From the IMG/VR virus record IMGVR_UViG_3300046167_000724: a stretch of 64,000 bases of DNA. One strand, 5' to 3'. Positions 1 through 40,588 of this stretch are shown piece after piece. Origin of the DNA: a virus. Lineage: Duplodnaviria > Caudoviricetes. The position numbers and the translations under genes were made by a program. The notes below the pieces were generated by a model. That model was not told the DNA's origin and made no database searches. It saw only the letters and a list, made by a program, of their open reading frames with translations. Every line of letters begins with the position of its first letter. The stretch's first letter is position 1.

Positions 1-2
1 AT

Positions 3-1085
3 AATGTTAGGGGTATTGCTAAAATACCTGGTATGTATACCGATGAATGTAAATCATATGGTGAGGGTTCTTCAATTGATCATATAAAAGCGGTTGCAAC
101 TGATTTAAAATTAGGACTTGCAACAAATATAAGCGACACTAAAGATACAATGCGTAGATTTTGTGCATACCAAACTAAACTTGAAATGCTTTCGAATACT
201 GTATTACATTCGTATTTAGATGATAACTCATTTCAAACATATTCGATTGACCCGTATTATTACATTAATTTTGTTGACATTCAAAAAATAATGAATGCAC
301 CTGAAGATATTGAAATACACGAATACATTACTAATAAAATGTTTCACGAAAGAGGGACAGACCCTACAACTGGTGCTGGTGAAGTTGAATCACAATTAAT
401 ACTTACGAATCATCATTTGGCTAGTGGTGGTAACACTAGTATTGAAAGATATAATCTTATTAATAATTCTACTAAAATAGCTTTAGAGAATGGTTATAAA
501 AGAAAGATGCAATATTTTGATTATGACGGAAGTGTTGGCAAAGACCTTATTGAATTTGATGTTGAATCATTAGTTGGTGATAATATTAAAGATCATGAAG
601 AAGCTTTGAAGGGTCGTAGAAATTCTGAAGTTGACGAATACAATACTCATATAAAACAAAAATATGTTGGTATTCAAAGCGATAGTGTTCATGATAATTA
701 TAAATTTGCTGCAATTAATAACATTCAAAATTTAATAGAGTTGGACAAGATGTATTTAGAAGTTCATCTTGAGGGTATGAATCCAGCTTTATATCGTTAT
801 ATGAAAGTTCCTGTAAATATTTTTAATTATGGTGAAGTGAACGGTGATGTTACTGAAAGTATTAACAAAGAAAAGCGAGAAGGTGATTTTGATGTTAAAG
901 CCGATGATACTAAAAATGAAAATGACGTTAATGAAAATGATATCTCATCATTTACACTAGATGAATTCTTATCAGCACATTATATTATACTTGGTATAAA
1001 ATATTTGTATGACGCTGAATTGGGTTATTCACAGACTCTTAAATTAGGGCGTAGGGAATGGCCGGCGAGATTAAACAATATTTGA
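3..1085 (+). CDS. Baseplate hub-like protein (T4 gp27 / P2 gpD-type), 5'-truncated by the window edge
   Basis: Frame is open from base 3, upstream of the ORF-track ATG at 33. C-terminal 'HYIILGIKYLYD..YSQTLKLGRR' pattern and position two genes before a gp5-like spike fit a hub protein. Confidence 0.5.
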   Translation, partial: NVRGIAKIPGMYTDECKSYGEGSSIDHIKAVATDLKLGLATNISDTKDTMRRFCAYQTKLEMLSNTVLHSYLDDNSFQTYSIDPYYYINFVDIQKIMNAPEDIEIHEYITNKMFHERGTDPTTGAGEVESQLILTNHHLASGGNTSIERYNLINNSTKIALENGYKRKMQYFDYDGSVGKDLIEFDVESLVGDNIKDHEEALKGRRNSEVDEYNTHIKQKYVGIQSDSVHDNYKFAAINNIQNLIELDKMYLEVHLEGMNPALYRYMKVPVNIFNYGEVNGDVTESINKEKREGDFDVKADDTKNENDVNENDISSFTLDEFLSAHYIILGIKYLYDAELGYSQTLKLGRREWPARLNNI

Positions 1086-1091
1086 TATATA
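1084..1091 (+). promoter_or_regulatory. Putative late promoter GATATATA (overlaps a T4-type TATAAATA at 1088-1095)
   Basis: Motif recurs at gene boundaries upstream of structural genes; lies 4 nt before ATG 1096. Confidence 0.55.
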
Positions 1092-1095
1092 AATA

Positions 1096-2253
1096 ATGGC
1101 AGATAATACTAGATATAATTTTACTAAAGGGATGTTAAGAACATCCGCTAAAAACCCATATCAAGACCCTACGTTTTTAACGTTTACTTTAAAGTTTGAT
1201 ATGCTAAGCCCTTTATTTAATAAAGATGTTGCGGTTAAATCTTTACGTGAACAATATAAGGAAGAAACTAAAGCAACTCAGCTAGAAAAGTTTATTAGTA
1301 CACTAACATTAATTAATAAAGAAATGCCATGGTATTTTAAATCAATTAGTGGTATAGATGCTGCTTTTGATATTGATATGTTAGAACCATATTTGGGCGG
1401 TGACGATAAAAAACTAGAAATAGAATGTAATGAATCTATTAATCTTGCAATTACAGGTTTGATGGATTTGTATAGAGAAGCTGTTTATAACCTAGACGGT
1501 TGGACACAAGTTCTTCCAGAAAATTATAAAAGATTCAATATGTATGTTATTGTTTCTGAAGTTAGAAATATACAAACAGTTAAAAATAATAAGAGTGGTA
1601 AAGAAGTTAATATAAACGATGAAATCACAGCTGATTCAAAACCAATGTTTATGTTTAAATATAAATCTTGTAAATTTGATATTACGTCTGGTAAAGAAAC
1701 TTTCTCATCATTAAGTTCAGCAGAGCCATCAAGCCCACAACCTAAAATTAGAATAAAATACGAATCTATTAAAAAGTTTAATGCTACTTATTTAAATGGT
1801 ATATCTGACATAACATTAGATGGCAGTCCAGGTGTTGGTACTGAAGATAAAAAGCCAACATTTAGCGAAAGGGGTTTAAGTGCACTTGATGATGCGCTAC
1901 AAACTGTAAGTGATGGTATTACAAATTTTAATCCTATTAATGAACTGACAAGGCCAAATAATGTATATGGTTCAATATTTGATCAAGCTTTTCAAAGGGC
2001 CGTTGGTGAAGTAGATGATATTGCAGGTGGTATTAGCAGAATACCTAATAATTTATTTAAGGACGGTTTAAGTGCTGCGGAAAATGAAGTACAAAGTTTA
2101 ATTAAAAGTGCTAAAGCAAATATATTTGGTATTGAACCAGGTTCAACTTTAGGTGCCGCTTTGAAACAGGGCTCGATCAATTCTATATTTCCAGATATTC
2201 AACAAATTAGTTTATTTAAAAATAAAAATAATTTAGGCAACATTAATAAATAA
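1096..2253 (+). CDS. Putative tail-tube-fold baseplate/tube junction protein (gp48/gp54/gp19-like)
   Basis: 385 aa; beta-rich N-terminal half (LEIECNES..., RFNMYVIVSEVR, FMFKYKSCKFD) resembles tube-fold proteins; sits between hub and spike genes. Confidence 0.35.
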   Translation: MADNTRYNFTKGMLRTSAKNPYQDPTFLTFTLKFDMLSPLFNKDVAVKSLREQYKEETKATQLEKFISTLTLINKEMPWYFKSISGIDAAFDIDMLEPYLGGDDKKLEIECNESINLAITGLMDLYREAVYNLDGWTQVLPENYKRFNMYVIVSEVRNIQTVKNNKSGKEVNINDEITADSKPMFMFKYKSCKFDITSGKETFSSLSSAEPSSPQPKIRIKYESIKKFNATYLNGISDITLDGSPGVGTEDKKPTFSERGLSALDDALQTVSDGITNFNPINELTRPNNVYGSIFDQAFQRAVGEVDDIAGGISRIPNNLFKDGLSAAENEVQSLIKSAKANIFGIEPGSTLGAALKQGSINSIFPDIQQISLFKNKNNLGNINK

Positions 2254-2921
2254 TGGAACGTAAGGAACTTTTTAAAGATAATTTAAGGGATTCCCATTGG
2301 TTAGGTGAAGTTGTAGATGTACAAGACCCGAATGGTAAAGGTAGATGTAGAATTAAAGTTTATGGCAAATTTGATTTACTTGAAACTGAAGATATACCTT
2401 GGGCTACTCCTGCTAATAATCAAATCACTGGTTCAATGTCAGTACCAAATGTTGGTGACGTTGTAGCAATCTATTTTGATAATGGCGACGTGTATACTCC
2501 TGTTTATAAAAACTCACCAAGAATTGATAGTACTTTTAAAGCTGACGTATTAGACGTTACGGGTACACCAGAGCTAACGACTTCATTAGTTTATGATACT
2601 ACTAAGGGTGTTAAGATTTACCATACACAAGAAGATGGTTTAATTATATCAACGGGTGATGGTGTTGAAGCTGACCCTGCAATTAGGGTTAGTAATGATG
2701 GCAAAATTTATTTATATGCTAATGATATTTTTATTGCTAGTTCATTTGGAGACGAATCAGAACCTGCGGTAAAGGGGCAAACACTTACAGACTTGTTAAG
2801 TGATATGCTTAATGTTATTAAAGAACATACACACGTCAATGCAGGACCTGTAAATCCATTAAATGTAATTGACCTGGCGCTTATGCAACAAACAATTGAT
2901 TCAATTAAACAAGAGTCTTAA
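2253..2921 (+). CDS. gp5: Baseplate central spike, gp5/Vgr OB-fold protein with HxH metal-binding apex
   Basis: 'WLGEVVDVQDPNGKGRCRIKVYG...IPWA...VPNVGDVVAIYFDNGD' is the gp5 N-terminal OB-fold signature; C-terminal 'EHTH' as in P2 gpV-type spikes; no lysozyme domain. Confidence 0.85.
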   Translation: MERKELFKDNLRDSHWLGEVVDVQDPNGKGRCRIKVYGKFDLLETEDIPWATPANNQITGSMSVPNVGDVVAIYFDNGDVYTPVYKNSPRIDSTFKADVLDVTGTPELTTSLVYDTTKGVKIYHTQEDGLIISTGDGVEADPAIRVSNDGKIYLYANDIFIASSFGDESEPAVKGQTLTDLLSDMLNVIKEHTHVNAGPVNPLNVIDLALMQQTIDSIKQES

Positions 2922-2930
2922 TAATTTATT

Positions 2931-4244
2931 ATGGAAAAGTTTGGAATAGAAAAAGAGTTAGATGGTATCAAGGTAAGCCTTGAGTCATTTGTTAATTTAG
3001 GGATATTAATACCTGCAATACCAGATTATGAAACTATTGTTGAGATTTATACTAATGAAGTTGTTGGTTTTAAATCAATAATGGTTGAATTAACTGATAA
3101 GTATAAAGAGAAGTATGGTGACGCATGGTCAGAAAAAGAGTCTGAAATTAAAGAGTTAATTGCTGCTGAAAAGAAAAAGACTATTGATTACTATATGAAT
3201 GAAGGTCGTCAATTTTTAGAAGGTCTACATAAAACATTAATTGAAGCTTTTAAAAAATTATTAAAAAAAATTAAAGAAGTTGCAACTGATGTTGTTAAAA
3301 AAGTAACTGAAGCGGTAATGCCCACTACAATTGGAATCGGTGCACCTAACCCATTAAGTATAATATTAAAATTATTTATAGCTATTACTGAAATTAAAAG
3401 ACAATTAGATGTTATAGCATTATTAGGTATTAAGCTTATTGATGTATTTAAGCAAATTGGTATTTTAGATTTAGTAGAAACTATGACTGGTAGTATTGTG
3501 GATTTCAAAAAAAGTATTGATGCTAAGAAGGCAGCGGCTGTAGCTACTGGATCAAAAATAAAAGAAATAGGTACCGGGTTAAACCCAGCAGAACTTAAAA
3601 ATAAACTTGATTGGACTAAAACCATAGACATGTCAACGCCGCTTGGTCAACAAATTACTGCGGTGAAGTCATTAGTAAACACAGTCAAAAGTTCTTCAGA
3701 TGTTGTTGAAAGTAACAACAAGGCTATTGCAAAATCTGAAGCTAAACTTAAAAAGAAACAACAAGCTATATTTAGTGCAAAATACTACGCGGACCAAAAA
3801 ATATTTACAATACCATGGCCGGCTGGTGGTACTGAAAAGCCTGGTAGTGCTGTAATGGAAATTGCAACTAAACGATATGATATTGCATTTACAGATTTCC
3901 CATTAAATGCGGTGCAGATATTACGATTAATTAATAAATCAAATGATATTGAAGTTATTAATGGTCAAGATAGTGATCGTGCATGGCGTGAATTAATTAT
4001 TGATTTTAATAATTATATGAATGGTTATAAAGAATGGGCTAAAACAGCCCGTGAATTTGAAGAAGATGAAAATGGTACAGTAATTTTAGTGTCGGGTAGT
4101 AAGGATAGTGAAAATACCGGGGGCGGTGAACCAGGTAATACTGGTAAAGGCCGTGCTCCTAGTAGTAATAACAAGGGTGGCGTTGGTACTGCTAATGATG
4201 GGAGTGGTGTTAAAACACCTGAGGAAGGTGATAATCCTAAATAA
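2931..4244 (+). CDS. Hypothetical protein (helical/coiled-coil, low-complexity G/N/S-rich C-terminus)
   Basis: 437-aa ORF with codon usage like its neighbours, directly after the spike gene. Confidence 0.6.
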   Translation: MEKFGIEKELDGIKVSLESFVNLGILIPAIPDYETIVEIYTNEVVGFKSIMVELTDKYKEKYGDAWSEKESEIKELIAAEKKKTIDYYMNEGRQFLEGLHKTLIEAFKKLLKKIKEVATDVVKKVTEAVMPTTIGIGAPNPLSIILKLFIAITEIKRQLDVIALLGIKLIDVFKQIGILDLVETMTGSIVDFKKSIDAKKAAAVATGSKIKEIGTGLNPAELKNKLDWTKTIDMSTPLGQQITAVKSLVNTVKSSSDVVESNNKAIAKSEAKLKKKQQAIFSAKYYADQKIFTIPWPAGGTEKPGSAVMEIATKRYDIAFTDFPLNAVQILRLINKSNDIEVINGQDSDRAWRELIIDFNNYMNGYKEWAKTAREFEEDENGTVILVSGSKDSENTGGGEPGNTGKGRAPSSNNKGGVGTANDGSGVKTPEEGDNPK

Positions 4245-4314
4245 ATTTAGTTAAAAAGAGGCCCAAAAAAATGGGTTATATAATGTATATTATTCACTTT
4301 CTAACTAAATAAAA

Positions 4315-5643
4315 ATGGAAAACAAAAAAAGAGAACGAATTGGTGCTAAAAAGGTAACCATCGCTCAAACAGAAGACGTACAATCTGTAGAAAATGTACA
4401 AGAAGAAGTAACGGTTAACGAAGATACACGTGGTGGTTTTATGCATGACGACTATGTTCTACCAAACGGCGAATTCGATTGGGACGGTTACGAGCATGCA
4501 TTCAGCCACAAGTTAAGACCTAATTACAAGGTTAAAACTGCAAGTCACAAACATATTGTTTATTCACAAGATGTTGAAGCACAAAATTATTACAACATGA
4601 TCGAATCAACTTCATTTGAAATTGATATGATTACATCACTGGTAGTAGACTCTTATCTTGAGGGTACATTACATTCAATGTCTACTAAATGGGCGACTGT
4701 TAATGTTAACTACCGTGAGATGCTTTACATTGACCTTGATAAAGAAGATGCTGATATCATTAAAGATTACAGACCTGGTGATTCAGTCACTGTAAAGGTA
4801 CTTAGTGATAAAACAGCAGCTCGTGAATATGCAACAGCTTCTATAACTGAAGGCGCTAGACAAGCAATCTTTAATGAGCTTAGACAGGCTACTGAAGATG
4901 GTAGTACTGCATTTATGGGTACTGTTAAATCTATGATTCCAGGTGGTGGTTATATCGTTAAGGTTCAAGGTATTGAATGTTTCATGCCGGGTTCACTTGC
5001 TGGTATTAATAAACTAGCTGATTTTGAATCAATTATTGGTAATGATATGTATGTTGTACCAGATTCATTCTCTGCAAATCGTGGAACTATTGTAGTGTCT
5101 CACAGAGCTTATTTACAAGCTATGATTCCAACGAGTATTGCAAAAATAGAAGAAGACTTTGATGCGGTACATAATGGGTTTGTAACTGGTACTGCTAAGT
5201 TTGGTGTGTTCTGTGAATTTGAAGGTTGTCTAACGGGTATGATTCACGTTAATGATCTAAGTCCAGAATGGGCTGCTAAGCATAAAGGTGGAGATATTAA
5301 CCCAGGCGATGCAATTGACTTTAAAGTTAAAGAGGTTGTTTCTAATAAAAAGATTATCTTAACTCAAGTTGAAAAACAAGAAGTTAAAGAAGATTTATCA
5401 TGGGAAGAGTTTACTAAAGACTTGCAAATTCCTAGTGTGGTTGAAGGTAAAATCCGTTCTGTAAAAGATTATGGTGTGTTTGTTGGACTACATGGTAGTG
5501 TAACTGGTATGGCACATGTGTCTGGATTTGAAAAAGGTATTTCATTAACTGAACGTTTTTCAAAAGGTGATGAGGTTGCTGTTGAGATTACAAAAATCGA
5601 TAACGACACTAAGAAAGTATTTTTAAAGGTGGTTGGAGCTTAG
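4315..5643 (+). CDS. rpsA: Phage-encoded ribosomal protein S1 homologue (four S1 domains plus N-terminal extension)
   Basis: Tandem S1 repeats: 'GTVKSMIPGGGYIVKVQGIECFMPGS...IVVSHRAY', 'GFVTGTAKFGVFCEF...GMIHVNDLS', 'EGKIRSVKDYGVFVGL...GMAHVS...KGDEVAVEITKID', plus a degenerate first domain. Confidence 0.85.
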   Translation: MENKKRERIGAKKVTIAQTEDVQSVENVQEEVTVNEDTRGGFMHDDYVLPNGEFDWDGYEHAFSHKLRPNYKVKTASHKHIVYSQDVEAQNYYNMIESTSFEIDMITSLVVDSYLEGTLHSMSTKWATVNVNYREMLYIDLDKEDADIIKDYRPGDSVTVKVLSDKTAAREYATASITEGARQAIFNELRQATEDGSTAFMGTVKSMIPGGGYIVKVQGIECFMPGSLAGINKLADFESIIGNDMYVVPDSFSANRGTIVVSHRAYLQAMIPTSIAKIEEDFDAVHNGFVTGTAKFGVFCEFEGCLTGMIHVNDLSPEWAAKHKGGDINPGDAIDFKVKEVVSNKKIILTQVEKQEVKEDLSWEEFTKDLQIPSVVEGKIRSVKDYGVFVGLHGSVTGMAHVSGFEKGISLTERFSKGDEVAVEITKIDNDTKKVFLKVVGA

Positions 5644-5670
5644 GTTCCAACCAACCTAAAATATATGGTG

Positions 5671-5678
5671 GATATATA
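5671..5678 (+). promoter_or_regulatory. Putative late promoter GATATATA
   Basis: Intergenic copy of the recurring motif, 23 nt before ATG 5702. Confidence 0.55.
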
Positions 5679-5701
5679 TTGAAACAAGATATGATCCTCC
5701 G

Positions 5702-7006
5702 ATGTTAAATCAACAAAATAAAGATGTATTATTAAACTCACAAATTGGGTTTGAGTTTGAATTCTATTCAAATACATCTGTAGAAGAGACTGCTAAATCG
5801 GTTGGGCAACTATTGGGTCGTAAGATTCAAGTAGAAACAAAAGCCCATTCCGATTTTCAGCCTTCTGATAAGGTCTTTAAAATGGAACCTGATATGTCAG
5901 GTGGTGCTGGTCTAATTGAATTAGTTACTGGACCCCTACCGTATACGGATGCTAGGCTTATTGCTATTAAAATGCTTAAGTGGATTGACGAAAATGGTTC
6001 AACAAATGACCGTTGTGGATTGCACTTAAATATCTCATTCCAAAATGGAACTTACGGTAAATACTTTATTACTCATATGAATACACTTAAGTTTGTATTA
6101 GAGTTTAAGGAAGACCAAGTATATAAATATTTCCCACAAAGAGAGGATTTAGTTTATGCTAAATCAATTAAGTACATCTTACCAAAGAATGGCTTATTTC
6201 ATTTTGATGAAAGGTCTGTTAATAAATCTCAATTTAATTATCCCAATACTAAATACTATGGTGTTAACTTCTTAAAGCAGGAGATGGGTTATTTAGAATT
6301 TAGATACCTTGGCGGTAAAGATTACCAAAAGCGTACTAATGATATTTTGCATTTAATGGATGGTTGGATTACACAATTACATAAAATTTGTAGTGAACCT
6401 GGGCTTAATGAGCTGAATAGATTAGAGTTAAGAAGAATTATGCGTGAGATGGGTCCTGTAATAAGCCTGTATCGCGACCACAGGAACTTTAAAAAGTTTC
6501 AAGACATAACCTTTACATTTGACCTAAGCGAGGATGGTGGCAATCGAGGTGAGACTATTGACATGTATTGGGATCAAATAAAAGATAGAGTTATTAAACT
6601 CATTTCCGAAGGTGGTTTAGTTAAGGGTCATATCAACTACGATACTGATAGGTCTAAGGTTCAAATTAAAGATGGTGTATTTAAAGGTGCACATGATTTA
6701 GAACATTACGAAATGGTTAACTGTGAAATTGCGGGCGAAGTTAGGTACAGTGATCTTTATAACTGCAAAATTAAAGGGTCTGACCTTGAAGGTTGTAACT
6801 TATATCAAGGTACTAAATTAACTGATTCAAAAATTAAATCATCATACGTACACCAAAGCTGTGAGGCAAAAGATTCATATGTGTTTGGTAGAGATGGTGT
6901 ATTTAAGGGTAAAATGATAGGTGGTATTTTTAGAGAAGGTAATTATTCTGAAAGCACTGCTAAATTTGATGGTACTGAAATTGTACAGTCAACAAAAATA
7001 AAATAA
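5702..7006 (+). CDS. Putative amidoligase (COOH-NH2 ligase type 2) with C-terminal beta-helix-like repeats
   Basis: Motifs 'IGFEFEF', 'EPDMSG...IELVTGP', 'CGLHLNISF', 'KYYGVNF', 'LEFRYLGG'; C-terminus of short beta-repeats (NCEIAG, NCKIKGS, DSKIKSS). Confidence 0.75.
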   Translation: MLNQQNKDVLLNSQIGFEFEFYSNTSVEETAKSVGQLLGRKIQVETKAHSDFQPSDKVFKMEPDMSGGAGLIELVTGPLPYTDARLIAIKMLKWIDENGSTNDRCGLHLNISFQNGTYGKYFITHMNTLKFVLEFKEDQVYKYFPQREDLVYAKSIKYILPKNGLFHFDERSVNKSQFNYPNTKYYGVNFLKQEMGYLEFRYLGGKDYQKRTNDILHLMDGWITQLHKICSEPGLNELNRLELRRIMREMGPVISLYRDHRNFKKFQDITFTFDLSEDGGNRGETIDMYWDQIKDRVIKLISEGGLVKGHINYDTDRSKVQIKDGVFKGAHDLEHYEMVNCEIAGEVRYSDLYNCKIKGSDLEGCNLYQGTKLTDSKIKSSYVHQSCEAKDSYVFGRDGVFKGKMIGGIFREGNYSESTAKFDGTEIVQSTKIK

Positions 7007-7010
7007 TAAA

Positions 7011-7868
7011 ATGAGTGATATTTTTACAGGTAATCTTGATGATCTAACAACACCACCGGAATATGACATAAATTGTTGGAACGACTTTATAAACGAAATC
7101 GGATCACATGTTACGGGTGCTTGTATGATTCCAATGAATCTACCACAGTCGGAGGTTATCAATATTATTAAAAGAGCAAAAAAATGGTTTTATAAAAACT
7201 ATGAATACTCTGTAGTTGAAAACTTTTTATACATTCCAAATGAAGTATTTAGTACTGAACAATTTAAAAAAAGGAGAGCTTTAACTTTACCCGATGGTAA
7301 AATTACTTTACCAGGTGGTGCCGTAGTGTCAACTGACGGCGGTGAAGTATTCTCAGTATACGGTGTATTTGAAGCTGGTGCTGGTGGATTTGGTACTTCA
7401 ATTACTTTTCAAGAGGGTGATTTTGATATGGAAAGAATGTTGTACGGTCAAATGTCCACGGGCGGCTCACAAGTTGCTAAGGGTATGGAAAACCTACAGT
7501 ATTACGTTGTTAATCAAAGTGCTTTAGAATTAACTAAACAAATTTTAGATAATCCTATTTCATTTCACTACTCTCAATTAACACATGAAATTAAATTTAC
7601 TGGACAAACACCTAGAAAAGATGTGTTCTTAGAAATATATGAAACTATTCCAGACTGTGCTTTATTTAATGATGAGATATTCTTTAGATATGTTGCGGCG
7701 AAGGTAATGATTTCACTAGGACAAAAATTAGCAATATTTGGTTATAACCTACCAGGTGACGTTACGATTAATGCTGACATTATTCAAGGTATGGGTACTG
7801 ATGAATTAGATAAAGTTATTGAAGAAATTAAATCAGACGAAGGTACTGATTGGATGATGCATTCATAA
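7011..7868 (+). CDS. gp13: Neck protein, T4 gp13-like
   Basis: 'IIKRAKKWFYKNY' and the C-terminal 'RYVAAKVMISLGQKLAIFGYNLPGDVTINADII...DELDKVIEEI' match gp13-family motifs. Confidence 0.7.
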   Translation: MSDIFTGNLDDLTTPPEYDINCWNDFINEIGSHVTGACMIPMNLPQSEVINIIKRAKKWFYKNYEYSVVENFLYIPNEVFSTEQFKKRRALTLPDGKITLPGGAVVSTDGGEVFSVYGVFEAGAGGFGTSITFQEGDFDMERMLYGQMSTGGSQVAKGMENLQYYVVNQSALELTKQILDNPISFHYSQLTHEIKFTGQTPRKDVFLEIYETIPDCALFNDEIFFRYVAAKVMISLGQKLAIFGYNLPGDVTINADIIQGMGTDELDKVIEEIKSDEGTDWMMHS

Positions 7869-7872
7869 GTTA

Positions 7873-7880
7873 GATATATA
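7873..7880 (+). promoter_or_regulatory. Putative late promoter GATATATA
   Basis: Intergenic; 8 nt before ATG 7889. Confidence 0.55.
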
Positions 7881-7888
7881 ATATTACT

Positions 7889-8245
7889 ATGGATTTTTAC
7901 GTTAAAGCACCGGGTGACCCAAATTATGACCCATATAAGATACATTCTGAGAGTGAAGTTGCTCAGTTGATAGGTCAAATTGAAACAACATTATTCACAA
8001 ATAGAGGTGATGTGTTAGGTGACCCTAATTTTGGTGTTAGTTTAGAAGACTTAGTGTATTCACTGGGTTATACTGAAGAGCAAATCCAAAAGATTATATA
8101 CGACCAGTTTGATGCATACATCCCATTGGCACAAAAATATGATGTTAAAATTACAGTAGCCTTTTATAAAGGAGACGTTAGAGACATCGCACAAATTGAC
8201 ATTACAATTGATTCTAAATATCAAGTTGGTGTTTACATAAATTAA
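7889..8245 (+). CDS. gp25: Baseplate wedge/sheath-initiator, gp25-like
   Basis: 118 aa; 'TLFTNRGDVLGDPNFGVSLEDLVY' is the gp25 signature; immediately before a gp6-like gene. Confidence 0.8.
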   Translation: MDFYVKAPGDPNYDPYKIHSESEVAQLIGQIETTLFTNRGDVLGDPNFGVSLEDLVYSLGYTEEQIQKIIYDQFDAYIPLAQKYDVKITVAFYKGDVRDIAQIDITIDSKYQVGVYIN

Positions 8246-8256
8246 GGAACCTAATA

Positions 8257-10086
8257 ATGGCTGAATTTAAATTTTTACAAGCTGCTAGAATTAAAGCGTC
8301 GCAAATCAAAATTGATGCGCAGAAATACATTAGTAGAGTTTATGGTAGGGCTGGTAATTTATTTACGGCTGCTTCGCCATTTGCACAAATCATTCAAGTA
8401 ATGTCGGAACTTACTGAAATGATTTTCTATTATGTTGAAGATGCTACAGTTGAGCAAAACATAATGACCGCACAACAGCCTGAATCAATTTATGGTTTAG
8501 CAAGACTTACGGGTCATGACCCTTCAAGAGGTCTTTCGGCTATTGGTGAAATTGAAGTAAGATGGAAACCAGGTGCTCAAAATGAGATTGCGGGTAGTGC
8601 ACTTTATATAAATGCAAATAGTCAAATCCGTTCAGACTTGAATGGACTTCCTTATTTATTACGTACATCTAATGACATTATAACATTAAGCTCTTCTGAT
8701 TTTAACTATATTAAAATTCCAATTATACAAGGTACTTTAGAGTCACAAACGCTTACTGGAACTGGAGAAGCTTTTCAGACTTTTAATATTCAAACTGGTG
8801 GTACAACAGCACATGATGAAATTACAGTAGCCGTAAATGGTGAAGCTTGGACTAAATACGATTCATTATATGATATGAACGGTAACACTAAAGGAGTGGT
8901 TGTTAAAACTGGTATTCTTGGTGGTATTGATTTATTCTTTGGTAATGGTAATTTTGGAATGATACCAGGTAATGGTACTATCATTACTGTTGATTATATT
9001 AAGAATAAGGGTGCGGCTGGTAACTTGGGTGAATCTAAAGATGTTACTTTTAGTTTTGTTGATAAAGGATTTGATGGTCAGTCAAACGAATATAACCTTA
9101 ATGATTTTATTGAAATTAAAGTTACTTCATCTCCAAAGTTAGGTGCAAATCAAGAAAGTATTGAGTTTACTAGAATGATAGCACCATTACAATCTAAATC
9201 ATTTGTGTTAGCAACACCTGATAATTACTTACACTTCATGTCTAAGTTTAACATGTTCTCACACATTGAAGCTTATAATACATCTGAAGACCAATACTTA
9301 GATGATGATAACGTTATTTATATGTTCTTATTACCAGATGTTTCTAAAAAATTATCGTCGGCTGAAGATTACTTTTCAGTTTCACCTGAAGAATTTATAT
9401 TCTCTCAAGATGAATTAAATGCATTTAAAACAGCTATTGAAAACTCAGGTCAACAAATGGTAACTTCTGAAGTTTCTTTTGTTGAGCCAAAGCAAAGACT
9501 TTATTCAATGAATATTTCAGTTAGACATTTTGAAGGTTTTGACGAAGTACAATTAATGAATAATATTAGAGCAAAGATATCTGAATATCTTCTTAAGATT
9601 ACAAGAAGAGATAGACTACCTAAATCTGATATTGTTGCAATCATAGAAAACATTGATGGTATCGATTCCGTGAACGTGCAGTTCCTATCAAAGTCTCAAG
9701 AGGATGCTCTTAGAGATGGGTCATACACAGTTACACAGACTACCATCACCCCACAAACCCCAGTACTTGAGGACATTGGTAACGGTAAAAACCGTATGAT
9801 GTTCTTTAAGAAAACGGTCACATCTAAAACGGTTACATTTGATAAAGCTGATGGAATACCTGTCGATGTTAGAGAACAGGTTACAGGTCTTGATGCATAT
9901 GGTGATATTATTTTAGGCAAAGAAGAAATGGCTTTATTTAGAGGAGGTTGGTCTGACAGAACTGGTGGTATCGTTGCAGATGAACCAAAAATTGGTCAAA
10001 TGGCGTCTTTATCAGTTGCATTCTCACCACCTGTACCTAGAACTGTTTATACTAAATTACAAGCAGCAAACAGAAAAGCAATATAA
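8257..10086 (+). CDS. gp6: Baseplate wedge subunit, gp6/baseplate-J-like
   Basis: 609 aa; 'AQQPESIYGLARLTGH', 'IDLFFGNGNFGMIP', 'LGANQESIEFTRMIAP...LATPDNY' are gp6-family motifs. Confidence 0.8.
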   Translation: MAEFKFLQAARIKASQIKIDAQKYISRVYGRAGNLFTAASPFAQIIQVMSELTEMIFYYVEDATVEQNIMTAQQPESIYGLARLTGHDPSRGLSAIGEIEVRWKPGAQNEIAGSALYINANSQIRSDLNGLPYLLRTSNDIITLSSSDFNYIKIPIIQGTLESQTLTGTGEAFQTFNIQTGGTTAHDEITVAVNGEAWTKYDSLYDMNGNTKGVVVKTGILGGIDLFFGNGNFGMIPGNGTIITVDYIKNKGAAGNLGESKDVTFSFVDKGFDGQSNEYNLNDFIEIKVTSSPKLGANQESIEFTRMIAPLQSKSFVLATPDNYLHFMSKFNMFSHIEAYNTSEDQYLDDDNVIYMFLLPDVSKKLSSAEDYFSVSPEEFIFSQDELNAFKTAIENSGQQMVTSEVSFVEPKQRLYSMNISVRHFEGFDEVQLMNNIRAKISEYLLKITRRDRLPKSDIVAIIENIDGIDSVNVQFLSKSQEDALRDGSYTVTQTTITPQTPVLEDIGNGKNRMMFFKKTVTSKTVTFDKADGIPVDVREQVTGLDAYGDIILGKEEMALFRGGWSDRTGGIVADEPKIGQMASLSVAFSPPVPRTVYTKLQAANRKAI

Positions 10087-10355
10087 TGGGTTTATTTGAC
10101 GGTTTATATAAGTATAAAATACAAAAGAAATATGATTTAGTAAAGTCGATGAACGACAAAAAACTAAATCAAGGGCGTGATTATTCAACTGATTTGTTGA
10201 AGAATTCATTATCTAAACATATTCAAAGAAACTCAACACTGAATACGTTTATTGAATTTATACAAGATGCATTTGTTGAAAATGTAAAAACGGTTTCTAA
10301 ACTTAAAGTATGGAAAGCGTTTAGTGTTGATAAGGATAACTGGAGAATTAAATAA
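10086..10355 (+). CDS. Hypothetical protein in the baseplate operon
   Basis: 89 aa; overlaps its neighbours by single bases (TAATG junctions). Confidence 0.6.
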   Translation: MGLFDGLYKYKIQKKYDLVKSMNDKKLNQGRDYSTDLLKNSLSKHIQRNSTLNTFIEFIQDAFVENVKTVSKLKVWKAFSVDKDNWRIK

Positions 10356-13027
10356 TGAAATACGCAGGTCTTAGATTTTTTAATGGTAACAAGTCGGAGA
10401 TTCAATTAGATTACGATGTAACTAATGAAATCTACACAGGGTCACTTCACTTAGATGAGGTGTCTACTGGTTTATATGAGACTGCTACAATCTTTTTATT
10501 AGAAGAAGCTATTAATCAATATGGTGCACCTATAATGGTTAAGCCTATTGCTAATACTGTAGGTTCTATGTTTAAGGTTGAATTTGTTAAAGACGATATG
10601 TCTTCAAATGATATCAATTTACTTAGTGCTTCAATGGAAGCTGACGGTGAAATTTATGTTAGTAAAGAAGATAATCTTTTATTGGACCTTGAATCTAATG
10701 CTGTAATTACATCAACAACTGATGGTATTCACACGGTTACAGGTGCCGCTTCTAAAGAGGCCGTTCAATTTACTATAGCATTACACTCTGATGTAGATGC
10801 AGGTCATTACAGGTACCTTAAAATATACGATGTAGCTAATAATCATGTAGTTGCAAATATTTATGTATACGGTGAGACGGTTGGTGAAGATGAAAGACTT
10901 GGTGTATTACTTTCTAACTTAGGTGCAACACTTTCTAGTAAAGACCAAAGCATTTTTAAAGAGCATGATATCAATGAGGTTGGTACTGATTGGAAACTTA
11001 TGAATAGAAAGCGTAAAGAGCTTTTACTTGAGTTGTCTAATATCAAACCATTCATTGGAACTTATAAAGCAATTATTAATGCAATTAAATTCTTTGGTTA
11101 TAACAATATTACTATTAAAGAATATTGGTTAATGATTGATGATCGTTCACCCATGTTTGGTAAAATGAAAGCTATTGAGGTACCAAGTTCTAAAAAAGGA
11201 TTTGTAAGTAAAAGAGCTAATGTTGCATTACCTTCATCTTCATATAAGAAAACATCTAGGTTTGGTTTATACTATAAGTTAAATACACCAACTGGTACAT
11301 TTGACGAATGGGACGAACCCGAGACTGAAGAAGTATTTGATTTTACACCTGAGGATGTCTTAATTAAATTATATGGCCTTAAGAATAAATTACAAAAAGA
11401 GTACTTACCACTACACGCTAGAATTGTTGATATTATTGGAGAGGGTGATTTCTTCTCTTCTTACAATACAAACTTTTGGAACAATCAAAATCCAATTACG
11501 GAAATTGTAGCAGGTATAGATGCTTCTATTAAAATTGAACAGGATAATCTTTTTATCGAAGATTTAACTAAAGTTTCAGATTTATTTACAGGACCATCAC
11601 AAGACTTTTCTACTTTATCAATTGCTGATAAAGAGACATTATATAATGAGGTAACTGCGTTCTATGAAGATTATTATAATTCTGATAGAAGTACGTTTTC
11701 ATCTGACAATACTGATGTTGTTATTGGTGCACCCGTTCAATTAGAATGTACATCATTCCTTGAAACTTGGGACGATGCTACATTTACTTGGGACGACGCA
11801 GGTACATCTATTAATTGGTTAAACTGGTGGAAGCAAAACATTTATGAACTTAAATGGTACATTACAGGTCCACGTAACTATTCACAGACAATTATAGGTG
11901 ATGTTGATGACTATAGAAAGATTGTAGTTGCATTACCTTATAGTGGAACATACAGTGTTGTGTTTGAGCAAATTGATTTATTTAATAATGTAATGACTGT
12001 TCGCGAACTTGATTCAATTGAAGTTAAAATGAAATCAGTTGAAGTATACGGCGTGTATAGATGGAAAGATCAAAACACATATAACTGGGGTAAATCAAAC
12101 TTTAAATGGGCAAATGCAGGTGGTGATTGGAATTTCCCACAACAAAACGAAGATACAGTTGAAGACGAAATTGCATCACTATACTTATCACTTGATAGGG
12201 CTAATTATTTACATGATGATTCTAAAGGTATAAACTTTTCAATGGTTAGAAGATTTAAAGATACTACAACGTCTACTGGTTTTAATGAAACTACAGGTCC
12301 TTATTTTTGGAGAAACTTAAAAGACCACACTTGGAATGATGGTAAGCACACGTGGTGGGACGCTACAGTTGTAGGTGCCGATCAAAGTGCATCATTTAAA
12401 ATATTAAAAGCTAGAGGTGGTGCAACATTAAACATTGTACATTTTGATTACAATACAAATACTGAATTGACGGGTCAACATATCATGCAACAAGTGATTA
12501 ATGACCCATTAGATTTACAATCTTGGATTGATGTCGCGGCTAATTTAAATAACTCAACAGACCCTGTAATTAGTAAGTTTAATTACAACCCTATATTTGT
12601 AGATATAAATAATAATGGTATTGAAGATGAATGTCATGGTATTTTAGCCGTCGGTAAAGGTTATTCATATACATATGATTTTAAAACTGTTGGATTTTTA
12701 AATCCAACGGATGGTATTATTGATGGTGAATTACATTATATGCCTAATAATCCAACATATAACGATTTAAGAATTGCCGTTGACCATGTTGATATTGAAT
12801 TGTTAACACATATGACATTTTCAGCTGATAAGTCTAGAATGCCAGGTAAGTTATCTTATAATTGGAAACTTACAAACAACAGCCAAAATGGCGACGATAT
12901 ATACTACAATAGTAAGTGGTTAACATACCTCTTTAATATAAAGGGTGATTACACTCTTGAGCTTGAGGTCCAAGATGTTAACGGTAATACTAATAAGATA
13001 ACTAAAAACGCTTTAACAATTAAATAA
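10355..13027 (+). CDS. Large baseplate wedge protein (gp7/P2 gpI-like motif, PKD/Ig-like repeats)
   Basis: 'IKPFIGTYKAIINAIKFFGY' resembles the gpI/gp7 wedge motif; two 'Y..GxYSV.(F/L)E..D..(N/G)N' PKD-like ends; follows gp6. Confidence 0.5.
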   Translation: MKYAGLRFFNGNKSEIQLDYDVTNEIYTGSLHLDEVSTGLYETATIFLLEEAINQYGAPIMVKPIANTVGSMFKVEFVKDDMSSNDINLLSASMEADGEIYVSKEDNLLLDLESNAVITSTTDGIHTVTGAASKEAVQFTIALHSDVDAGHYRYLKIYDVANNHVVANIYVYGETVGEDERLGVLLSNLGATLSSKDQSIFKEHDINEVGTDWKLMNRKRKELLLELSNIKPFIGTYKAIINAIKFFGYNNITIKEYWLMIDDRSPMFGKMKAIEVPSSKKGFVSKRANVALPSSSYKKTSRFGLYYKLNTPTGTFDEWDEPETEEVFDFTPEDVLIKLYGLKNKLQKEYLPLHARIVDIIGEGDFFSSYNTNFWNNQNPITEIVAGIDASIKIEQDNLFIEDLTKVSDLFTGPSQDFSTLSIADKETLYNEVTAFYEDYYNSDRSTFSSDNTDVVIGAPVQLECTSFLETWDDATFTWDDAGTSINWLNWWKQNIYELKWYITGPRNYSQTIIGDVDDYRKIVVALPYSGTYSVVFEQIDLFNNVMTVRELDSIEVKMKSVEVYGVYRWKDQNTYNWGKSNFKWANAGGDWNFPQQNEDTVEDEIASLYLSLDRANYLHDDSKGINFSMVRRFKDTTTSTGFNETTGPYFWRNLKDHTWNDGKHTWWDATVVGADQSASFKILKARGGATLNIVHFDYNTNTELTGQHIMQQVINDPLDLQSWIDVAANLNNSTDPVISKFNYNPIFVDINNNGIEDECHGILAVGKGYSYTYDFKTVGFLNPTDGIIDGELHYMPNNPTYNDLRIAVDHVDIELLTHMTFSADKSRMPGKLSYNWKLTNNSQNGDDIYYNSKWLTYLFNIKGDYTLELEVQDVNGNTNKITKNALTIK

Positions 13028-33724: not shown

Positions 33725-36064
33725 ATGAAAAAGATTGAATCATTTAAAAGTTTTTCTCAATTACAAAATCAAATCAGAGAAGAGGCTAGATTAAAAGAAG
33801 TTGCATCTAAAAGAGACGCTACAGTTTCTGAGTTTAACGCTCTTTTACAAAAGTACAATGCGGCATCAGTTGCAGACTTAAACGAAGAAGATAGAGACGC
33901 ATTCATGGCTGAACTTACCAAAGAAGGTAATGCTTTCGGTGCAGCAAGAGCAGAGGCTATTGCAAAGGGTGAAGAAGAGTTTAAGGTTGGCGACGAAGAA
34001 ATGCCGGTTAAGAATGTAGATAAAGAAGACGAAGAAAACGCTGAAGAGTTTGTTAAAGAGTCAACTACAATTATTGAAGAAGGTACTAGAGGTCAATTCG
34101 GTAAAATCTATAAGAATGGCGAAATCGCTTCTGTATACACACACTATGATTCTTATCCTGAGAACATGATTCCACTTATTAAGAAGGGTTATAAAAAAGG
34201 CACTGATGTTGATGCAGTTCTTGGTAAAGGTGGTAATTCAGGTCTAGAAGTTTCTCCAGATAAAATGAAGTTTTATGGCGATGCGGATAGCATGACTCCA
34301 ATGAAAGGTAACATTAAAAATCTTAATAAGTATATTAAAGATGCTGACCGTAATGGTGGTGCAGAGTATATCTACTTATTTGACGAAAGAGATCAAAATT
34401 GGTACATGATTGACATATATGGTGATAAAGAATTAGTACCGGCATTTGAATCAGTAGTTACTGAAGGCAAGCACGACGAGATGCTAGATAAAGTTGCAGA
34501 TGCTGTAAAAAATGCATCAAACTTTATGAACGTTGGTATTGCACTTAAAGATGCAGGTATCAAGTACGATTTTTCAACAGGTATGATGCCAATCTATAGG
34601 TTGAAAAAATACCCTATTGCTATTGTAAATAAAAAGTATGTTGACGATGCAGATAGAGAAGTAGGTGACATTGCAATTGGTGTAATGGAATCACTTACTG
34701 AATCGCTAATCACTGAAGCACTAGAAGGTAGAAGCCAGAAAGAAGCGATGAAAGGTTATGCTGCAATTCATAAGTTTATGATGGCACACCCTGGATTTGC
34801 TAGCAAAACAGTTTCAGACCAAACAGTTGCTTGGACAATGAAAGAAGCTCTTAAGGCTGCACTTATAGACGCAAACTTCCATACAGAAGCTAAGTCAGTT
34901 GGTAAAGCTATTAACTTTGCAAACTTTCAAGCACCAACTGTTTTTGTAAACGAACTGGGCGGTATGCCAATCCAAATCAGTAAAAAAATGATGATGGATA
35001 AAGTATATGAGCTAGCTACAGAAATTACAAGAGGTGCAAAATATAATGGTTTTGCTATTATTGAAGCTGTTGCAATGTTCTTTGATGATTCATTCCCTAA
35101 GAATTCTTCTGCATCAAATCTAAGAGATGTACTTGCTAAATTTATGGGTGAAGCTGTAGAAGCTAATAATCTAGAGCAAAGAATTAATGAAGGTTCAGCG
35201 TTTAATTCGGCAAGACTAAAAGCTATTGCTGACGATAAAGATGAATTTGAATTTGATGGTAAAACTTATCCAGTAAAATCTGTTGATAAGGAAGATGAAG
35301 AACTTGCTGATGATTTAGTAGGTGAAGGTAATGCATTTAGCACTGCTAGGTTAAAGGCTATTGAAGCTGGTGAAAAGGAGTTTGAATTTGATGGTAAGAC
35401 TTATCCAGTAAAGTCAGTTGACAAAGAAGATGAAGAACTTGCTGATGATTTAGTAGGTGAAAGTAACAAAACCATAGATGCTAGCACATTTGGCGATGAC
35501 AAATTACGTTATGATGATCAATTTAGAGGTGCTACTGGTCTTGCTAAAACATTAGCAAGCGAATTAGGATTTGATCCAAAAAAGCCTTGGACTGAAGGTA
35601 TTGGTTTTGATGATATTGAAATGTATGCTATCGGTAAAAAAGAAGGAACTATTTCAAGAAACGCACTATCAGGTAAATATACGTATGCTGATCTTTTAGC
35701 AATGGCTAAAGATTTTTTAGGAATCAATGAATCAGAAGATAAAGAAGCTGCTGATGATGTAGTCGATGAGTCTAGATACGATGATATAAAACTTAAAGAA
35801 TTTGCAGAATTTATCAAAAAAGCTGAAGGTAAAAGAGTTATGCTAACAACAACTGAATTTGATGGTACATCTAAGGTTGAGGGTAGGCTTCAAAAAAGTT
35901 CATCAGGTTATCATAAAATTGATTACATGAGCTTTGATTTTAAAGATGAAATGGATACTATCAAAAAGGGTGACGGCATGATTATGGGTGTTAGGGTTGG
36001 CGAATTCCTTAAGTACAATATCGGTGGTAAAAACGGTTCTCAATTTTTAATTGAAGTACTATAA
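33725..36064 (+). CDS. Acidic modular protein with three 45-aa repeats; putative protease-processed internal head polyprotein
   Basis: CTS-like start 'MKKIESFKSF'; modules bounded by IEE/VTE/ITE/INE; repeats at 33923, 35189 and 35324. Confidence 0.6.
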   Translation: MKKIESFKSFSQLQNQIREEARLKEVASKRDATVSEFNALLQKYNAASVADLNEEDRDAFMAELTKEGNAFGAARAEAIAKGEEEFKVGDEEMPVKNVDKEDEENAEEFVKESTTIIEEGTRGQFGKIYKNGEIASVYTHYDSYPENMIPLIKKGYKKGTDVDAVLGKGGNSGLEVSPDKMKFYGDADSMTPMKGNIKNLNKYIKDADRNGGAEYIYLFDERDQNWYMIDIYGDKELVPAFESVVTEGKHDEMLDKVADAVKNASNFMNVGIALKDAGIKYDFSTGMMPIYRLKKYPIAIVNKKYVDDADREVGDIAIGVMESLTESLITEALEGRSQKEAMKGYAAIHKFMMAHPGFASKTVSDQTVAWTMKEALKAALIDANFHTEAKSVGKAINFANFQAPTVFVNELGGMPIQISKKMMMDKVYELATEITRGAKYNGFAIIEAVAMFFDDSFPKNSSASNLRDVLAKFMGEAVEANNLEQRINEGSAFNSARLKAIADDKDEFEFDGKTYPVKSVDKEDEELADDLVGEGNAFSTARLKAIEAGEKEFEFDGKTYPVKSVDKEDEELADDLVGESNKTIDASTFGDDKLRYDDQFRGATGLAKTLASELGFDPKKPWTEGIGFDDIEMYAIGKKEGTISRNALSGKYTYADLLAMAKDFLGINESEDKEAADDVVDESRYDDIKLKEFAEFIKKAEGKRVMLTTTEFDGTSKVEGRLQKSSSGYHKIDYMSFDFKDEMDTIKKGDGMIMGVRVGEFLKYNIGGKNGSQFLIEVL
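35189..35458 (+). repeat. Tandem 135-bp (45-codon) repeat; a diverged third copy lies at 33923-34057
   Basis: EGSAFNSARLKAIADDKDEFEFDGKTYPVKSVDKEDEELADDLVG / EGNAFSTARLKAIEAGEKEFEFDGKTYPVKSVDKEDEELADDLVG. Confidence 0.95.
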
Positions 36065-36126
36065 AAAAGTTTAAAAAAGTTTGACATATATTTTTTTATG
36101 TCATTCTTTTTTTGTATATTAGAAGT

Positions 36127-36432
36127 ATGAAAAGGGTAAAACTATTCGAAAGCTTTATTAACGAGGCAGGAATCTTTAGAACTTACAATGAGCTTGTTGG
36201 TTATGAATACAAGAAGTTTGTAGATGCTTTTAAGAAGCTCCACCCTGATAATATAGTTACATATGATAAAAAGAATGATGTTGATTATGGTCACCGTAAA
36301 GGCTCCACAGAAGCACTTTGGAAATACTTTCATGATGAAGGTAGAATTCACCACTCTGAAAAAGACAGAGACGTACTTGGTCTAATCAATGCATTTGACA
36401 TGGTTAAAAGAAACCACCCTTGGTCAAAATAA
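36127..36432 (+). CDS. Small protein with CTS-like leader (MKRVKLFESFINE-A)
   Basis: ATG 36127 preferred over the ORF-track start at 36112; the leader ends in INE. Confidence 0.7.
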   Translation: MKRVKLFESFINEAGIFRTYNELVGYEYKKFVDAFKKLHPDNIVTYDKKNDVDYGHRKGSTEALWKYFHDEGRIHHSEKDRDVLGLINAFDMVKRNHPWSK

Positions 36433-36442
36433 AACAAACATT
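36402..36442 (+). repeat. 41-bp direct repeat, copy 1 (end of the upstream gene plus intergenic/start region)
   Basis: ggttaaaagaaaccacccttggtcaaaataaaacaaacatt, identical at 36747-36787. Confidence 0.95.
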
Positions 36443-36445
36443 CAA

Positions 36446-36721
36446 ATGAAAAATATAAAATTATTTAACGAGTTTGCTGAACCAACAACTGACGAGTCTA
36501 TTATAAATTCACAAATTGAAGAGAAAAAAGCAGACGGTACAATCTCTGACGATGAGGATGAGAGAAGAGCTGAATTACTTAAAAGAGTAAAAGAGCAAAT
36601 GGAAGAACTTTTAGCTTCAGCAGAATTCGATGCTAACGATATTGGCGGTTCTTTTAGAGCACCTGGTATTATGGCTAAAATCAGAAAAGAACTAGAAGGT
36701 CAAATTAAAAAGTTTAGATAA
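36446..36721 (+). CDS. Small protein with CTS-like leader (MKNIKLFNEFAE)
   Basis: ATG 36446 preferred over the ORF-track start at 36389; 91 aa; contains IEE. Confidence 0.7.
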   Translation: MKNIKLFNEFAEPTTDESIINSQIEEKKADGTISDDEDERRAELLKRVKEQMEELLASAEFDANDIGGSFRAPGIMAKIRKELEGQIKKFR

Positions 36722-36722
36722 T

Positions 36723-36752
36723 ATGAAGCTTCTTGTTTCTTTTAACGGTTAA
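36723..36752 (+). pseudogene. Relic 5' end of the ligase-fold gene (MKLLVSFNG-stop)
   Basis: aatatgaagcttcttgtttcttttaacg closely matches aatatgaacaagctacttatttcttttaacg at the start of the 37431 gene. Confidence 0.6.
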
Positions 36753-36787
36753 AAGAAACCACCCTTGGTCAAAATAAAACAAACATT
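36747..36787 (+). repeat. 41-bp direct repeat, copy 2
   Basis: Identical to 36402-36442; both copies are followed by (c/t)aaatgaaaaa, which contains the next start codon. Confidence 0.95.
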
Positions 36788-36790
36788 TAA

Positions 36791-37429: not shown

Positions 37430-37430
37430 T

Positions 37431-38723: not shown

Positions 38724-38729
38724 ACTAAT

Positions 38730-40568: not shown

Positions 40569-40588
40569 TAAAATACAATTATAGTAAG

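Follow-up and report, generated by a model that had tools for sequence, protein, structure and literature searches.

Introduction

In Escherichia coli, ribosomal protein bS1 is held on the 30S subunit by uS2, which it grips through an N-terminal helix (F5, F9, Q7, E10), through K43 of a loop in its first OB domain, inserted into a uS2 pocket, and through F79 (D'Urso et al. 2023, PMC10123108). The association of bS1 with the ribosome is weak, and in Bacteroidota, where genes are initiated from A/T-rich upstream regions lacking Shine-Dalgarno (SD) sites, contacts between bS1 and mRNA are thought to be especially important and have been little studied (PMC7797042). S1 encoded by phages is already known: S1-like proteins were seen in viral metagenomes before 2019, S1 then being excluded as ambiguous (PMC6375957), and putative rpS1 has been described in huge phages since 2020, in a paper that also holds the idea of translation redirection and a correlation with SD-poor genomes (Al-Shayeb et al. 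2020, PMC7162821). Here, a gene at positions 4315–5643 (+ strand) of IMG/VR record IMGVR_UViG_3300046167_000724 (Duplodnaviria; Caudoviricetes) was analysed within a stretch of 64,000 nucleotides, the whole of which is called the window. Judged by homology and architecture, its 442-amino-acid (aa) product, P0001, is a phage homologue of bS1 that keeps domains 1–4, and it probably docks on the host 30S subunit via uS2 and recruits SD-less, A/U-rich late mRNAs of the phage, supplementing or displacing host bS1.

P0001 belongs to the same family as the putative rpS1 of huge phages (Al-Shayeb et al. 2020, PMC7162821) and the corresponding proteins of Lak phages. It is 38% identical to the 389-aa S1 of phage LR756500, which shares with the Lak-C1 protein a viral group and the helix KxxSxExYxxELY; P0001 differs from these proteins in coming from a marine T4-like lineage and in carrying a long tail with a basic tip. 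The Lak-C1 homologue (Prevotella phage, L091:5950–7059, 369 aa) has FNW..YE, a YAQELYDAY helix, three OB domains and an acidic, Ala/Glu-rich C-terminus. The accessible text of Al-Shayeb et al. 2020 (PMC7162821) contains no domain-level or anchor analysis of phage rpS1. This analysis adds a map of P0001 domain by domain, an analysis of its anchor and a model of its uS2 interface; it also indicates how large and how separate the viral family is, and describes the invariant gene position, the conserved late-type box and the basic tip.

A comparable system is the bS21 of Bacteroidota phages (Chen et al. 2022, PMC9723584), a protein of the small-subunit platform that large phages with SD-less hosts encode and whose expression is tied to late-stage replication. 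P0001 is a homologue of another ribosomal protein, the in-situ expression evidence is that of bS21, and no bS21 match was found in the virus record nearest to the window (G001, 125 kilobases (kb), 41% complete). The jumbo cyanophage PhiMa05 is a cultured phage with an annotated bS1; according to that report (PMC13157829), this bS1 groups with Vampirovibrio cellular ribosomal proteins and lies beside other ribosomal protein genes, whereas P0001 belongs to an old, virus-only family and is encoded in a structural block.

Results

Identity and domain architecture

The open reading frame (ORF) runs from 4315 to 5643 on the + strand, exactly where the first-pass annotation, a reading of the sequence and its translated frames made without database searches, had placed it, and the start at 4315 is backed by a full-length, 98% identical copy in G001 and by metagenome contigs. 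All top NCBIfam matches were rpsA (30S ribosomal protein S1) models, colinear over residues 104–438 with domains 1–4, at scores that did not reach the curated equivalog cut-offs (NF004952, the best, 135.4 vs 524 bits; TIGR00717, 123 vs 577). With phmmer, residues 179–437 aligned to residues 88–344 (D2–D4) of E. coli bS1, and a profile of the family gave one unbroken alignment with E. coli bS1 (residues 5–347, E 2.6e-85), the uS2-binding helix included. In every sampled cellular bS1, including those fused behind cytidylate kinase, the best match of this profile was the N-terminal four-domain part, and Foldseek searches with the predicted structure returned bS1 chains on 30S complexes as best matches. 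Matches to non-ribosomal S1 proteins (RNase R/II, PNPase, Tex, NusA, GSP13/CvfD) were confined to D4 and much weaker, no catalytic, nuclease, PNPase, Tex or other extra domain was found in P0001 with Pfam or NCBIfam, and no PHROGs family matched it. The first-pass annotation had taken the product for a ribosomal S1 as opposed to an S1-domain protein of the RNase or Tex kind, and on NCBIfam, profile and Foldseek evidence it does group with ribosomal bS1.

An AlphaFold2 model built from 139 relatives (mean predicted local distance difference test score (pLDDT) 88.6, predicted template-modelling score 0.67) contains four five-stranded OB barrels at approximately 114–176, 200–262, 286–350 and 374–439, bearing out the four S1 domains first proposed, preceded by two short helices (56–63 and 89–96, the latter beginning at about 88) and by a disordered stretch over residues 1–43/44 (pLDDT <50). 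These domains are colinear with domains 1–4 of bacterial bS1, and domains 5–6 are absent: the typical Gram-negative and Bacteroidota form has six domains, while P0001 has four, its ORF ending 3 residues past D4. Four-domain cellular S1 proteins exist, e.g. in Bacillota; the sole short cellular S1 sampled here was a 370-aa protein from Clostridia (L003).

On the + strand, D1 (residues 111–178, 4645–4848) is degenerate like D1 of bS1, with R134 aligned to E. coli K43, and D2 (residues 196–265, 4900–5109) carries the GGY...FMPGS signature of bS1 domain 2. D3 (residues 283–352, 5161–5370) is the most conserved and keeps F296, F299, H311, K339 and K346, and D4 (residues 370–441, 5422–5637) is a canonical Pfam S1 domain. 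The Pfam S1 cut-off was passed only by D3 and D4; since the first two domains of bS1 are degenerate, weak Pfam S1 scores are expected there, and D1–D2 were missed. P0001 thereby follows the bS1 pattern of degenerate D1–D2 and canonical RNA-binding S1 domains from D3 on.

The N-terminal anchor

The stretch before D1 had been described in the first-pass annotation as an acidic extension of ~130 aa that is not S1-like. It is acidic overall (net charge −8); its length is ~110 aa, it begins with a basic tip, and only residues 1–44 are not S1-like, residues 45–105 being S1-related. In the disordered tail (residues 1–44, 4315–4446, + strand, delimited by pLDDT and charge), residues 1–15 carry a net charge of +4 (tip KKRERIGAKK, residues 4–13) and residues 16–44 form an acidic linker. 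Residues 45–105 (4447–4629, + strand) are conserved and structured and, by conservation, alignment and model, make up an N-terminal anchor module with FDWDGYE (54–60), a phage-specific insert, an IVYS strand (81–84) and the helix AQNYYNMIE (88–96).

FDWDGYE matches the FDWxx(F/Y)E motif of Bacteroidales bS1 (BLASTP and hhalign), which was present in 113 of 114 retrieved Bacteroidales bS1 and in none of 36 other long bS1. With BLASTP, P0001 residues 50–439 align with the 597-aa Bacteroidales bS1 through the motif and D1–D4 at 25% identity; the N-terminus of that protein (L093) reads ...PVENFDWDAFEKGE. The likeness to Bacteroidales bS1 (597 aa in L093; P0282–P0395) extends over FDWxxYE, amphipathic helix and OB1 and through colinear D1–D4, with D1–D2 degenerate and D3–D4 canonical in both. 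Because the motif and the alignment are shared with Bacteroidales bS1, the former non-S1-like extension is for the most part a Bacteroidota-style bS1 anchor plus a phage insert. Unlike Bacteroidales bS1, P0001 has four domains and not six, a 10–16-aa insert, a disordered tail with the motif K-R-x-R-[ILV], a gene in a virion block and a place outside the cellular group of the tree.

Right before D1 the family consensus is K(V/I)(Y/F)S-x-E-P-YAQELYDLY, and in the profile alignment the family's LYDLYEES falls on F5-AQLFEES of E. coli bS1 and the P0001 helix on E. coli F5–S12; the P0001 anchor segment, IVYSQDVEAQNYYNMIES, is somewhat diverged from this consensus. The position equivalent to K43 (R134 in P0001) holds a basic residue, K or R, in 110 of the 139 members of the family, and an aromatic residue often stands near the position of E. 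coli F79 across the family. P0001 is thus similar to E. coli bS1 on the 30S subunit (PDB 6h4n, 6bu8, 9gut; D'Urso et al. 2023, PMC10123108) in the helix, the K43 equivalent, the aromatic near F79 and the uS2 surfaces, and it differs from it in that the E. coli protein has no FDW motif, nothing before the helix and D5–D6 present, identity to P0001 being ~25–30%. A profile of the N-terminal module alone found no match in the PDB, so no solved bS1 chain fits the FDW-to-helix profile, and a single-sequence phmmer search of the PDB with residues 40–200 gave nothing significant.

The truly phage-specific parts are the 10–16-aa insert, which separates the FDW motif from the helix, and the disordered tail. 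The tail-tip motif K-R-x-R-[ILV] is common in close relatives (90 of 121), rare in distant short ones (3 of 115) and absent from the Bacteroidales bS1 (0 of 114). Across the window protein (4324–4353) and its relatives (P0002–P0121), this tip stands 28–49 residues, the length of the linker, before the FDW motif.

Predicted docking on uS2

A complex of uS2 from Flavobacterium johnsoniae (Swiss-Prot RS2_FLAJ1) and P0001 residues 45–270 was modelled with the family alignment supplied. Docking to uS2 with AlphaFold had been suggested as a check in the first-pass annotation, and the modelled complex scored 0.68, the best of 3 controls 0.00; this mark is reached by 58 of 80 solved complexes and by 2 of 110 mismatched pairs, a yardstick that is rough here since our own alignment was supplied. 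Contact agreement between complex runs was ≥81%, and partner pLDDT was ≥80.

On the uS2 side the predicted interface consists of residues 7–45 and 204–208, and on the P0001 side of residues 64–67, 77–99 (strand and helix), 126–138 (OB1 loop, with R134) and 166–172. R134 is predicted near uS2 204–208, helix 88–96 lies inside the predicted interface, and the predicted contacts of lowest error run from the IVYS strand (80–84) to uS2 33–36. The N-terminal anchor module is the main predicted uS2 interface, using the same surfaces as in E. coli. The complex model supports binding of P0001 to uS2 without showing it.

The RNA-binding face

Across the family, conservation is highest in D3. Among the 139 members T291, F299 and T307 do not vary, position 296 carries F or Y in 127, H311 recurs in 114 and K339 in 126, and position 346 is basic (K or R) in 134; D4 keeps its RNA-binding positions less strictly. 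F296, F299, H311, K339 and K346 are presumably the aromatic, histidine and basic positions that the S1 fold uses for RNA. Because these positions of D3 are nearly invariant, the conservation argues for selection on productive RNA binding. The idea that D1–D2-like domains dock on the ribosome while two further domains bind RNA, put forward in the first-pass annotation, is accordingly supported on three counts: the uS2-binding helix and the K43 equivalent are kept, the D3 residues are near-invariant, and the complex model passed.

The same D3–D4 residues would also serve a protein working off the ribosome, whether as RNA chaperone, as mRNA protector or as cofactor to a phage enzyme, the part that host S1 plays for T4 RegB, Q-beta replicase and lambda Beta. 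Phage enzymes use host bS1 via D1–D2 (PMC13157829), Q-beta replicase chains (4q7j, 4r71) are among the matches of P0001, the S1 gene constantly adjoins an amidoligase gene, and Al-Shayeb et al. left action "on or off the ribosome" open (PMC7162821). Yet the conserved elements ahead of D1 are those that hold uS2 in E. coli, they are predicted to do likewise here, and a pure RNA chaperone needs none of them; moreover, the window yielded neither a RegB-like nor a replicase partner. A role off the ribosome is therefore regarded as unlikely, and docking on uS2 with recruitment of phage mRNA is preferred.

A large, virus-only family

A word-indexed search retrieved >120 proteins of 400–452 aa at E <1e-108, all metagenomic and including Tara sequences, and an exhaustive search of representatives gave 128 clusters at E ≤1e-30, mostly of 340–450 aa. 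At least 588 confirmed viral contigs encoding relatives were found in an IMG/VR scan, and the nearest ESM Atlas clusters are 90–100% viral. Phylogeny against bS1, also among the checks first suggested, was run with FastTree on D1–D4; the tree is quick and unrooted with long branches, and shows separation, not the point of origin. A long branch (local support 100) divides all cellular bS1 (including Acinetobacter, a Dehalococcoidia metagenome-assembled genome (MAG), a Clostridia MAG and nine Bacteroidales) from 121 of the 124 short forms, the LR756500 and Lak-C1 proteins among them. The viral family is thus separate from the sampled cellular bS1. By its sequence the FDW motif points to Bacteroidota, although the phage family does not group inside Bacteroidales in the tree.

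Two database entries labelled as phage were set apart. L093 (MT835643.1, "UNVERIFIED: Bacteriophage sp."), a tblastn match, is a piece of Bacteroidales chromosome on which birA-like, tRNA deaminase, RNase Z and purT-like genes lie; the product of its six-domain rpsA matches a cluster of 2701 sequences at 100% identity and named S1 of Bacteroidales, Parabacteroides and Muribaculaceae at 87–91%. L092 (CAKLQH020000011.1, "Acinetobacter phage MD-2021a") has the bacterial gene order cmk-rpsA-himD-pyrF, because of which its rpsA looks like host chromosome and not like a phage S1.

Conserved place in the structural block

The S1 gene lies between baseplate and neck genes, as first noted. Upstream are a gp5-like baseplate hub OB-domain gene (2253–2921, + strand; upstream in 73 of 82 related loci) and a gene for an uncharacterised 437-aa protein (2931–4244, between hub and S1). 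Downstream follow an Amidoligase_2 gene (5702–7006, + strand), directly adjacent in 79 of 82 loci, a gp13/Ad2-like neck (head-tail adaptor) gene (7011–7868, + strand), a gene for a 118-aa protein next to it (between 7868 and 8257) and a gp6/J-like baseplate wedge gene (8257–10086). All 80 IMG/VR loci, wherever the contig reaches, show the order hub ... S1 – amidoligase – gp13 – small gene – wedge, and phage LR756500 (462 kb) does so from hub to gp13. Within this conserved block only the gene or genes between hub and S1 vary. In that slot (loci L010–L089) a recognisable counterpart of the 437-aa protein of the window was present in only 10 of 82 loci, and the spacing between hub and S1 varies over ~0.9–4.4 kb. 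The amidoligase adjacency (loci L010–L090) includes LR756500; as the whole block is syntenic, a link in function between amidoligase and S1 is only a possibility. No GenBank phage matched window positions 1–12000 in a search for near-identical DNA.

S1 identity across loci (43–98%) tracks the identity of the structural neighbours. Since synteny is kept and S1 divergence follows that of its neighbours, the S1 gene is, on sequence comparison, taken to be a long-standing core member of the structural block. The parallel divergence of S1 and the neighbouring structural genes, and the long branch that the family occupies by itself, led us to reject a recent capture from a host.

The location in a baseplate–neck block, with a late-type box throughout the lineage, would also suit a virion-associated protein, either a structural OB repeat of baseplate or neck or a cargo that enters the next cell together with the DNA and acts immediately on its ribosomes, and the disordered tail carries a conserved short motif of no assigned role. 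The sequence is plainly that of bS1 and not a generic OB repeat, however, and P0001 matches no structural PHROG family. A capsid-targeting tag was also considered and rejected: the N-terminus, MENKKRERIGAKK, is unlike the MK..(L/F).(E/N)(S/E)F leaders of the putative cargo genes of the window (33725–43114), and because P0001 has no such capsid-address-like leader the virion-associated explanation is weakened further. It is held to be very improbable next to action of P0001 on host 30S subunits during infection.

Expression signals

A late-type promoter-like box, TTATATAAT (4276–4284, + strand), lies 31–39 nucleotides (nt) before the ATG and represents a variant form of (G/T)ATATATAA(T), the box of the lineage. 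It is followed by an A/T-rich leader without SD site (4285–4314, + strand) that contains CACTT (4295–4299), conserved in relatives. Among relatives the typical box is GATATATAA(T), after which come a CACYTT element, also conserved, and an A-rich leader, and an ATATATA/TATATAA box was present in 44 of 47 distinct regions upstream of related S1 genes, mostly 35–36 nt before the ATG. T4 late promoters have the form TATAAATA, to which the S1 box is similar in form and placement. From the sequence, the S1 gene appears to have its own late-type promoter, and we infer late timing from it. The TATATAAT noted upstream of the gene in the first-pass annotation was located at 4277–4284; the timing, called unclear there, is now less so, because comparison with relatives identifies this element as a variant of the late-type GATATATAA box, lateness itself still being an interpretation.

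In the window GATATATA occurs 9 times, always on the + strand, and in 8 of the 9 cases a gene, mostly a virion gene, starts no more than 50 nt downstream; the count by itself is not significant and the placement is striking. The amidoligase gene has its own GATATATA box (5671–5678). At 1084, 7873, 28101, 60234 and 61037 the box begins at or just after the preceding stop, and only 5–10 nt separate its end from the following ATG; were these boxes to act as promoters, the transcripts would be nearly leaderless or have very short leaders.

A weak hairpin, CCCA-A6-TGGG (4261–4276, + strand), was read from the sequence between the upstream stop codon (4242–4244) and the promoter-like box. It may be a terminator or processing site of the upstream gene, though it has no T-run; a terminator scan found no intrinsic terminator flanking the S1 gene and did not call the hairpin at 4261–4276. 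Relatives carry stronger hairpins at this place, such as the perfect 7-base-pair stem of L011 (ACCCTAT-A5-ATAGGGT), and a small hairpin precedes the box in L013 too. Short metatranscriptome contigs from three marine runs of two studies, 95–99% alike and covering parts of 4225–4591 and 4831–5871, were rejected as evidence of expression: contigs from RNA libraries are no proof, and one of them starts upstream of the promoter-like box.

The timing bears on whether P0001 might instead be a dominant-negative blocker, holding uS2 more tightly than host bS1 does, giving no D5–D6 support to host mRNAs and acting mainly in host shut-off. Domains 5–6 are indeed absent, the extra strand (80–84) gives the lowest-error predicted contacts with uS2 33–36, and N-terminal fragments of E. 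coli S1 have been reported to inhibit translation. Late-type expression would nevertheless be an odd time for shut-off, and the best-conserved part of the protein is D3–D4, which argues for productive mRNA binding; a blocker is accordingly judged quite improbable, and P0001 more probably helps the translation of phage mRNAs.

Translation context and host

An SD-like site was found in 3 of 54 genes of the window, and the stretch before the starts (−1 to −20) is rich in A/T and poor in G, the same kind of A/T-rich, SD-less upstream region as in Bacteroidota (PMC7797042). The scarcity of SD sites also agrees with the correlation found by Al-Shayeb et al. in huge phages that encode putative rpS1 (PMC7162821). 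DNA of the window recurs in seawater metagenomes from many studies. A marine Bacteroidota host is likely on these sequence features, probably one of the Flavobacteriia. A single-protein scan of genome contigs returned two distant bacterial S1 loci only and no host clue, and the cluster names of long relatives contained almost no taxonomy.

Discussion

The favoured course of events begins with phage S1 being made late in infection, from an independent late-type transcription unit in the structural block of a T4-like jumbo phage. The protein would then dock on uS2, where host bS1 binds weakly and exchangeably; because of this weak and exchangeable binding, phage S1 could supplement or displace its six-domain host counterpart. 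D3–D4 would recruit SD-less, A/U-rich phage mRNAs, and the loss of D5–D6, together with the added N-terminal parts, may shift affinity or mRNA preference. Replacement of host S1 and redirection of initiation to phage mRNAs, as first proposed for this gene, would be the outcome of such an exchange.

Several points weigh against this account. Every NCBIfam rpsA score is far under its curated cut-off (135 vs 524 bits for the best). The phage family lies outside all cellular bS1, those of Bacteroidales included, and its function could have drifted. The P0001 helix is diverged (VEAQNYYNMIE vs the consensus PYAQELYDLY), and a place inside a virion gene block is unexpected for a translation factor. 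As for the complex model, resemblance to known structures may explain its good score, bS1–uS2 having already been solved; it was also built with a stand-in for the host uS2 and with our own alignment. The proposed host is deduced solely from the scarcity of SD sites, from the FDW motif and from the occurrence of relatives in Lak (Prevotella) phages. The literature found holds no 30S-binding, expression-timing or translation experiment on any phage S1.

A bolder version, which seems to us unlikely as a whole, would make P0001 a virus-specific, reinforced bS1 in which the Bacteroidota anchor, the insert strand on uS2 and a tethered basic tip together let the protein outcompete host bS1 and shift mRNA preference late in infection, possibly with cooperation from the amidoligase. 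On its linker of ~40 aa, the K-R-x-R-[ILV] tip could reach the 30S platform or the 3' tail of the 16S rRNA, where Bacteroidota hide the anti-SD.

For this lineage of phages, the simpler account of uS2 docking and mRNA recruitment means that phage S1 probably helps phage messages to be translated late in infection. The family is large and old, a four-domain bS1 with a Bacteroidota anchor having been kept for as long as the baseplate genes, and the FDW motif may serve as a host-phylum marker for uncultured phages. Residues 45–441 offer a compact construct for uS2 and 30S binding and for RNA selection, and phage S1, as a natural minimal S1, would provide a handle on how SD-less initiation can be biased.

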